From: a virus
Length of the DNA: 11,447 nt
UHGV virus genome: UHGV-1613795
Reading direction: 5' to 3' (one strand)
Shown here: positions 5,396-5,423 of the stretch, piece by piece
Position numbering within the stretch: position 1 is the first letter of the stretch
Layout of the letters: every line of letters starts with the position of its first letter
Program-made: the position numbers and the translations under genes
Notes under the pieces: model-generated
Database searches by the model: none
Seen by the model: only the letters and a program-made list of their open reading frames with translations
Told to the model about the DNA's origin: nothing

Positions 5396-5423
5396 TTAAA
5401 CAAAAACCCAGCCGAAGCTGGGT
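5396..5423 (-). terminator. Intrinsic terminator downstream of the antirepressor gene
   Basis: On the minus strand: 7-bp stem (5423-5417 pairing 5406-5412, CCCAGC core), 4-nt loop, then TTTTTGTTTAA (complement of plus 5396-5406). Lies between ant stop (5442-5444) and the next gene start (5385). Confidence 0.6.

Follow-up and report, generated by a model that had tools for sequence, protein, structure and literature searches.

How can a regulatory cassette sit inside a late structural operon without its transcripts running on into the virion genes beyond it? The question is raised by an 11,447-nucleotide (nt) stretch of the virus genome UHGV-1613795, hereafter the window, in which the antirepressor gene ant is followed on the minus strand by a stem-loop, H2 (5405..5424), and then by the gene for a Dit-like baseplate/distal tail protein. 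H2, recognized in the minus-strand sequence, by a consensus scan and by RNA folding, sits on the coding strand in the 56-nt gap between the two genes, and forms the right-hand end of an immI-type cassette. We put at roughly 0.8 the probability that H2 is an intrinsic terminator that ends arc-ant transcripts and insulates the baseplate genes, and that late transcription modified by a Q-family antiterminator reads through it. Judged by its sequence, H2 is a P22-type ant terminator in a new genomic setting.

The structure of H2 is directly established. On the minus strand it consists of a 5' arm, GACCCAGC (5424-5417, from G5424 to C5417), a TTCG loop (UUCG in the RNA; 5416-5413) and a 3' arm, GCTGGGTT (GCUGGGUU in the RNA; 5412-5405). 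The closing G-U pair, 5424/5405, is optional, so that the stem has 7-8 pairs. Directly 3' of the GC-rich hairpin comes TTTTTGTTT. The U-rich tail as a whole, TTTTTGTTTAAT (5395..5406, minus strand; assigned from the sequence and from relatives), is made up of a run of five T (T5, 5406-5402), G5401, TTT (5400-5398) and AAT (5397-5395); the first two T of T5 double as the last two bases of the 3' arm, and the arm is followed by TTTGTTTAAT (5404-5395). The stem begins 17 nt after the ant stop codon (TGA, 5444-5442, in the context CTACTGA), with CAGATAACCAACGCAAC as the minus-strand spacer between them. A first-pass annotation of this DNA had placed the hairpin at 5396-5423 with the tail TTTTTGTTTAA, about 10 nt from the ribosome-binding site (RBS) of the 4570-5385 gene. 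Apart from the optional 5424/5405 pair, we arrive at the same coordinates and tail, and the distance from the end of the stem to the GGAGAG RBS of the Dit-like gene is indeed 10 nt in the sequence.

H2 has all the sequence features of an intrinsic terminator, as the same annotation had proposed. Its GC-rich stem-loop is stable: the 32-nt element folds at -14.1 kcal/mol (z = -4.0; 1 of 200 shuffled sequences was as good), and in an 81-nt context the value is -24.6 kcal/mol (z = -3.5; 0 of 200). The U-tract, UUUUUGUUU, begins within the last pairs of the stem and is interrupted by a single G. The element lies 3' of a gene, on its coding strand and in noncoding DNA; the sole open reading frame (ORF) that overlaps it, of 55 amino acids (5315-5482, plus strand), was judged spurious, running as it does antisense across the ends of two genes. 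The T-run is missing on the opposite strand, suggesting that H2 is unidirectional. A consensus terminator scan placed H2 second among the sites of the window, as a 4-nt loop on a stem of 8 pairs (5 G-C). Over its full length, however, the window held 14 terminator-like sites compared with 9.4 +/- 3.0 in shuffled sequences, and in the absence of a significant excess the scan is by itself weak proof. An Rfam scan of the whole window at a relaxed threshold found no family that covered H2.

The decisive support for H2 as a real element is comparative, and comes from its identity across phages and from the presence of a hairpin in cargo-bearing relatives. The 22-nt core ACCCAGCTTCGGCTGGGTTTTT (5402..5423, minus strand) is identical at 22 of 22 positions in P22, where it lies between ant and gene 9 (L003 1597-1618), and in Emek (L004 1501-1522), where a rho-independent terminator is annotated at 1499-1521. 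It is also identical in VT2-Sakai, between ant and roi, with an ant 3' end that is only 77% identical. This exact identity over 22 nt rules out a chance hairpin. Over 118 nt, the ant 3' end and hairpin are 90.7% identical to P22, and the resemblance extends to the genes, as ant is accompanied by arc-like and mnt-like genes in the P22 arrangement. In the record of epsilon34 a terminator feature lies beneath the BLAST match to the window; according to the epsilon34 paper, its terminators were defined from their position and their relatedness to P22 sites (Villafane et al., 2008; PMC2629481).

The 3' end of the 22-nt core coincides with a module boundary. In a BLAST comparison of the cassette with phage genomes, similarity started exactly at 5402 in the P22-like phages Kapi1, EC.P3, Emek, epsilon34 and P22 and in many Shiga toxin (Stx) phages. 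A 151-nt probe matched 247 phage records, and nearly all of the alignments ended at 5402, the last T of T5. T5 (5406-5402) lies within the block common to P22, and the GTTTAAT that comes next is confined to prophages of the window's family. On the mnt side, similarity to Stx-phage cassettes ends at 6982-6984, inside a partner hairpin, H1. Two hairpins had been proposed in the first-pass annotation to delimit an autonomous unit within a late operon, and the ends of similarity at 5402 and 6982-6984 bear out that they bound an inserted unit.

A similar picture was obtained with the ant gene as the starting point. Among 80 ant relatives found by protein similarity, 71 have CCCAGC-N4-GCTGGG and a T-run after ant. 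These 71 copies fall into 15 haplotypes, in which 3 of the 4 loop positions and 29 of the 30 upstream spacer positions vary and none of the 12 stem columns does, a partial test in that six of those columns were fixed by the search pattern and six were free. Beyond the T-run the copies pass into at least four unrelated continuations, each with the RBS of the next gene within 5-15 nt.

If the hairpin serves to keep cargo-initiated transcription out of the baseplate genes, it is expected wherever the last cargo gene is co-directional with them. We compared 65 viral-contig loci encoding Dit-like relatives (49-100% identity) and four loci of Escherichia coli, recording for each how far the Dit-like ATG lies from the stop codon of the tape-measure gene and applying a detector of hairpin plus T-run upstream of the ATG. 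In seven loci (L061, L063, L065, L066, L068, L070 and L071) the interval is only -4 to +2 nt, so that the two genes overlap or touch, and a hairpin was found in none of the seven. Another 58 loci have the genes 71-4950 nt apart (1658 nt in the window), and 54 of them show a hairpin and T-run, with the end of the stem 15-26 nt, mostly 18-20 nt, before the ATG. Wherever the last cargo ORF is directed toward the Dit-like gene, a hairpin was present, and the cargo loci that lack one (L047, L058, L059 and L067) have opposite-strand ORFs only. The comparison with cassette-free relatives that the first-pass annotation had suggested therefore shows that the terminator travels with the cassette: H2 is present only with cargo, and relatives with abutting tape-measure and Dit-like genes do without a hairpin.

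The junction itself accepts varied cargo. Its gaps, from -4 to 4950 nt, hold 58 ORF families. An Arc/Mnt-family gene together with Ant is found here in about 30 loci, distant ones included, and P63C, Rha, ORF6N and S24-repressor proteins are encoded in others. Small opposite-strand ORF families directly after the tape-measure gene have, as judged by eye, hydrophobic, signal-peptide-like N-termini, and gaps of 285-295 nt contain a hydrophobic ORF of 70-76 amino acids. In the cultured Edwardsiella phage GF-2 (Gofduovirus; L274 4507-4560), the order is tape measure, mnt/arc/ant, a ACCCGCTTCGGCGGGT-T6 hairpin and the Dit-like gene. The tape-measure/Dit-like junction thus behaves like the P22 'ant moron' site, as a cargo hotspot in a different virion-gene family; we found no description of such a hotspot in the literature searched.

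A number of observations weigh against termination and insulation as the function of H2 or limit the evidence for it. The U-tract is interrupted, U5-G-U3 as compared with U7 in P22. The stem is invariant, which made a covariation analysis of the ant-linked copies impossible, and its conservation might just as well come from a constraint on the sequence as from one on the structure. The association of hairpin and gap, measured against a detector background of 1.9% of the 60-nt windows in these loci, gives a Fisher p of 4.7e-7, a value that overstates the independence of the loci, which are related to one another with some redundancy among them (L008 is the contig of the window itself). At least 16 distinct hairpin sequences occur at this position, with differences that preserve pairing (CCCAGC/GCTGGG, CCCACC/GGTGGG, CCCGC/GCGGG, CTCAC/GTGGG and CCCTG/CAGGG among the variant arms), but they were picked by a detector that requires pairing and are completely paired by construction; their pairs were counted by a script, the MAFFT alignment being gapped, and the counts are descriptive only. 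A scan for sigma-70 promoters detected none for arc-ant above threshold in 6554-6654, the region between arc and mnt, where a TTGCTA-17-CATATT sequence (8/12 match) was spotted by eye only. The gene for a Q-family antiterminator was observed in a relative, in a region outside this window. Finally, four to six loci with opposite-strand cargo only keep a hairpin (L021, L028, L050 and L053 are examples), and so does L069, in a 71-nt gap without cargo. At these loci, keeping out cargo transcripts cannot fully account for the hairpin.

The hairpins of L069 and of the opposite-strand loci would be accounted for if H2 were mainly a partial attenuator of the late operon, at which some of the polymerases from the late promoter would be released, lowering the output of baseplate proteins relative to those of the head, sheath and tube, whose genes lie upstream. 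Baseplate proteins are present in few copies per virion. Intra-operon terminators without an assigned role are noted for phage L, and the P22 ant moron is, according to the epsilon34 paper, thought to affect the arrival of the late polymerase at the tailspike gene (PMC2629481, citing Adams et al., 1985). Such a role is compatible with termination of arc-ant transcripts, but we think it unlikely to be the principal one. The seven cargo-free relatives lack any hairpin, and dosage control by a terminator is thus no requirement of the family. Moreover, antitermination of the Q type, as with lambda Q and P22 gp23, is generally held to confer resistance to terminators.

The position of the stem, ending just 10 nt before the RBS, also suggests a function at the level of the RNA, either as a 3' stabilizer or processing barrier of the ant mRNA or as a modulator of Dit-like translation in read-through transcripts. 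Stable 3' hairpins are known in general to protect mRNAs from exonucleases, and bases beside the RBS are paired in a weak outer helix of the 81-nt fold. This helix, however, is not conserved in relatives with different flanks, and the T-run, for which neither a stabilizer nor a translational element has any need, is kept in every variant. Stabilization would in any case be a by-product of termination, and we regard a primary role of this kind as very improbable.

The partner hairpin H1 (stem-loop 6963-6986, within a feature at 6956..6986 on both strands; detected by the scan and by folding) closes the cassette on the mnt side. It encodes the C-terminus of Mnt and, with the stop codon of mnt placed in the loop, ends this gene on the plus strand. 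H1 folds well both ways (-15.1 and -16.7 kcal/mol) and is bidirectional. In the late direction, on the minus strand, it is followed by TTTTTTGTTTA, down to 6956, and the T-run on this side (T6GTTTA) is the better of the two. Late transcription must, therefore, read through two terminators, a need that fits the Q-family antiterminator of the relative.

H1 and H2 also share sequence. A direct repeat of 14-15 nt, TGGGTTTTT(T)GTTTA, flanks the cassette on the minus strand, at 6970-6956 and 5410-5397, and GGGTTTTT occurs on that strand at these two sites only. In relatives without the ant cassette (L006, L009 and L011), H1 itself stands directly before the same GTTTAATGGAGAGTAGATG, which explains why the repeat flanks the cassette of the window. 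The repeat could be the footprint of a short-homology insertion or deletion. Base composition gives no hint of foreign origin: the GC fraction of the cassette is 0.42-0.46 and that of the flanks 0.41-0.47.

These repeats bear on the possibility that H2 is primarily a recombination joint for the exchange of cargo by short homology, with terminator activity secondary or irrelevant. At least 120 viral contigs contain the exact 22-mer, with about 21 contexts on its upstream side and about 23 on its downstream side, and in relatives of the E. coli group the same hairpin follows three different last genes, namely ant, a KilA-like gene and a 73-amino-acid ORF. The prophage of E. coli FDAARGOS_1288 (L001) has two copies of the 22-mer, at 5683-5704 and 6554-6575, around 850 nt that are missing from the window; this segment, made up of the KilA-like gene and the 73-amino-acid ORF, recurs in the ant moron of JEP4, a P22-like phage. 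The single copy in the window is as expected for a deletion between direct repeats, and relative to L001 the window looks like either such a deletion product or the state before insertion. In L037 and L058, the 60 nt before the Dit-like ATG retain the 3' arm and T-run (GCGGGTTTTTT), but unrelated sequence has taken the place of the 5' arm, which points to a recombination junction inside the hairpin that destroyed it. As the primary function, however, a joint is in our view quite improbable. It leaves unexplained why, in distant relatives, hairpins of unrelated sequence that keep their pairing and T-run are found at the same place, and why loci without cargo, or with cargo on the opposite strand only, are precisely those that lack the hairpin. 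No precise junction of an empty site was found in complete E. coli genomes: a search there for the window-type tape-measure 3' flank, H1 and the Dit-like gene in succession gave none, and the matches began at the hairpin. Breakpoints at terminators are moreover expected passively, since survivors must keep a terminator and the RBS of the next gene. We suggest only tentatively that, besides terminating transcription, the H2 22-mer and H1 are portable joints by which cargo moves among P22-like podoviruses, Stx phages and the present sheath/baseplate family. If so, stem and T-run would be selected for both termination and short homology at a single late-operon hotspot.

Returning to H2 as a terminator, we infer from the sequence both termination at H2 and Q-dependent read-through, and picture the following. 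The immI-type cassette, mnt and the divergent arc-ant, would be a moron in a lambdoid prophage that carries a contractile-tail gene set, where it is lodged between the genes for the tape measure and the Dit-like protein. RNA polymerase starting at a cassette promoter, for example in the lysogen or early in infection, would transcribe arc and ant. The C(UUCG)G-capped stem would then form, and polymerase would pause on the U-tract and be released 10-20 nt before the Dit-like start codon, so that the baseplate genes would stay silent. During lytic growth, polymerase from the late promoter, modified by the Q-family protein, would ignore both H2 and the bidirectional 6963-6986 hairpin and enter the baseplate genes. 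Of the function that had been attributed to the hairpin in the first-pass annotation, one part holds, in that cassette-started transcripts would be stopped before the baseplate genes; the proposed uncoupling of Ant from late transcription does not, because late transcripts enter upstream and cross arc-ant in the sense direction.

The Dit-like gene (4570..5385, minus strand; 271 amino acids) was assigned from a Pfam Dit_like match below the gathering score (E = 1.8e-4), and its relatives are annotated 'phage baseplate protein'. Its start region (5383..5394, minus strand) reads GGAGAG (5394-5389), TAG and ATG (5385-5383), and this RBS/ATG sequence is kept in all relatives of the E. coli group. 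The product of ant (5442..6320, minus strand; 292 amino acids) has Bro-N and P22_AR_C domains, and the region is 96-97% identical in DNA to the ant regions of Kapi1 and EC.P3. The arc-like small repressor gene (6392..6553, minus strand; 53 amino acids) has a weak Pfam Arc match (E = 0.0038) and is annotated as Arc family in Kapi1. The mnt-like gene (6655..6975, plus strand; 106 amino acids), divergent from arc-ant, encodes an Arc-family repressor (Pfam Arc, 1.6e-19).

The control region between arc and mnt (6554..6654, both strands) presumably holds the operators and the cassette promoters. Both an inverted repeat, around ATGGCATTATGCC (6573-6603), and an exact 18-nt direct repeat, AGCAATATGCCATCATTG (copies at 6591-6608 and 6618-6635), are present there and are probably operators. 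In the arc-ant spacer, antisense to the start region of ant, lies a candidate sar-like antisense RNA (6322-6388, plus strand). The match to Rfam RF00262 (sar), at 28.5 bits and E = 0.026, is below the gathering score of 43; it is the only notable Rfam match in the window and occupies the position of sar in P22.

The structural genes of the window are all on the minus strand, and run from capsid and neck genes through a truncated SLT tape-measure gene, the cassette and the Dit-like gene to the baseplate genes. The tape-measure/SLT transglycosylase gene (7044..8078, minus strand), of which the C-terminal part remains, is the last late gene upstream of the cassette. Downstream of the Dit-like gene come a baseplate plug gene of the Pam3-gp18 type, further baseplate genes and a baseplate J gene. 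In the ORF list, the baseplate plug gene and the next gene (3397-4386 and 4271-4573, minus strand) overlap by about 80-115 nt, and relatives are annotated with an 80-nt overlap of the same two genes (L001 4551-4630).

The nearest relatives of the window are prophages of E. coli. One of them is lambdoid and has, ahead of the same structural operon, cI/cro/cII, nin genes, an 'antiterminator Q family protein', lysis genes and terminase. In comparison with L001, the prophage of the window is without 3.26 kb, comprising the tape-measure N-terminus, two small genes, the tail tube and the tail sheath (junction at about 8153-8155), and a second deletion, of 0.77 kb, lies near 9955 in the head-gene region. 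The two internal deletions indicate that the prophage is defective. With the sheath, the tube and part of the capsid region gone, the question of termination is moot in this particular prophage.

In kind, then, the terminator is already understood. It shares with the ant terminator of P22 immI, between ant and gene 9, the 22-nt core, the distance after the ant stop codon, the orientation, and a place just before a late structural gene, probably within a late operon of the Q/gp23 type. By analogy, its logic would be that of P22, where the identical hairpin stands between ant and the tailspike gene 9. There, transcripts from Pant reportedly terminate at this site and late transcription reads through it, as is said to have been found in 1983 by Berget, Poteete and Sauer and by Sauer and colleagues. 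The two sites differ in the downstream gene, which is here a Dit-like baseplate gene of a sheath/baseplate set and in P22 the tailspike gene of a podovirus, and in the distance from T5 to the next start codon, 16 nt here compared with about 170 nt in P22. The arc/mnt control region, unlike the hairpin, has no sequence relation to that of P22 or Emek. A paper on BTP1 transcriptomics contained no data on the ant terminator, and mEpimmI (PMC11893012) belongs to an unrelated group of siphoviruses.

The insert also resembles known morons. According to the epsilon34 paper, which names the region between gene 16 and the tailspike gene the 'ant moron', that region is an insert of variable, non-structural content that occupies a single fixed junction in the late operon, often carries mnt/arc/ant, shows rapid gene flux and is missing in some relatives (Villafane et al., 2008; PMC2629481), all of which applies to the present insert as well. 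The hotspot described here differs in lying at the tape-measure/Dit-like junction, in another family of virion genes that includes Edwardsiella phage GF-2. The epsilon34 paper also paraphrases the definition of a lambdoid moron (PMC2629481). The present cassette is likewise inserted between genes that overlap or abut in seven relatives, has a factor-independent terminator at each end, H2 after ant and H1 after mnt, and should not depend on the late operon for its expression. It differs from lambdoid morons in being a multi-gene regulatory cassette rather than a single gene, in that its promoter is presumed, and in a composition like that of its flanks, a distinct composition being frequent in morons and not obligatory. 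As Juhala and colleagues and Hendrix and colleagues are said to have defined it in 2000, a moron is an additional gene that lies between two genes found side by side in relatives and brings its own promoter and factor-independent terminator. In Stx-converting and 933W/Sakai-type phages the identical hairpin and T-run follow ant, with the next RBS within a few nt, but there the unit is in the early-right (nin) operon, before roi, and here in the late structural operon. The present setting of the terminator was not found described in the literature searched.

For annotation, the hairpin before the baseplate genes should not be taken to mean that the late operon ends there. For phage engineering, the junction with its terminator looks tolerant of prophage-expressed inserts, provided that late transcription is antiterminated, and GF-2 could serve as an experimental model. 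For the biology of these phages, the terminator is a clean marker that the immI cassette has passed, as a whole transcription unit, between phages whose virion genes are unrelated.
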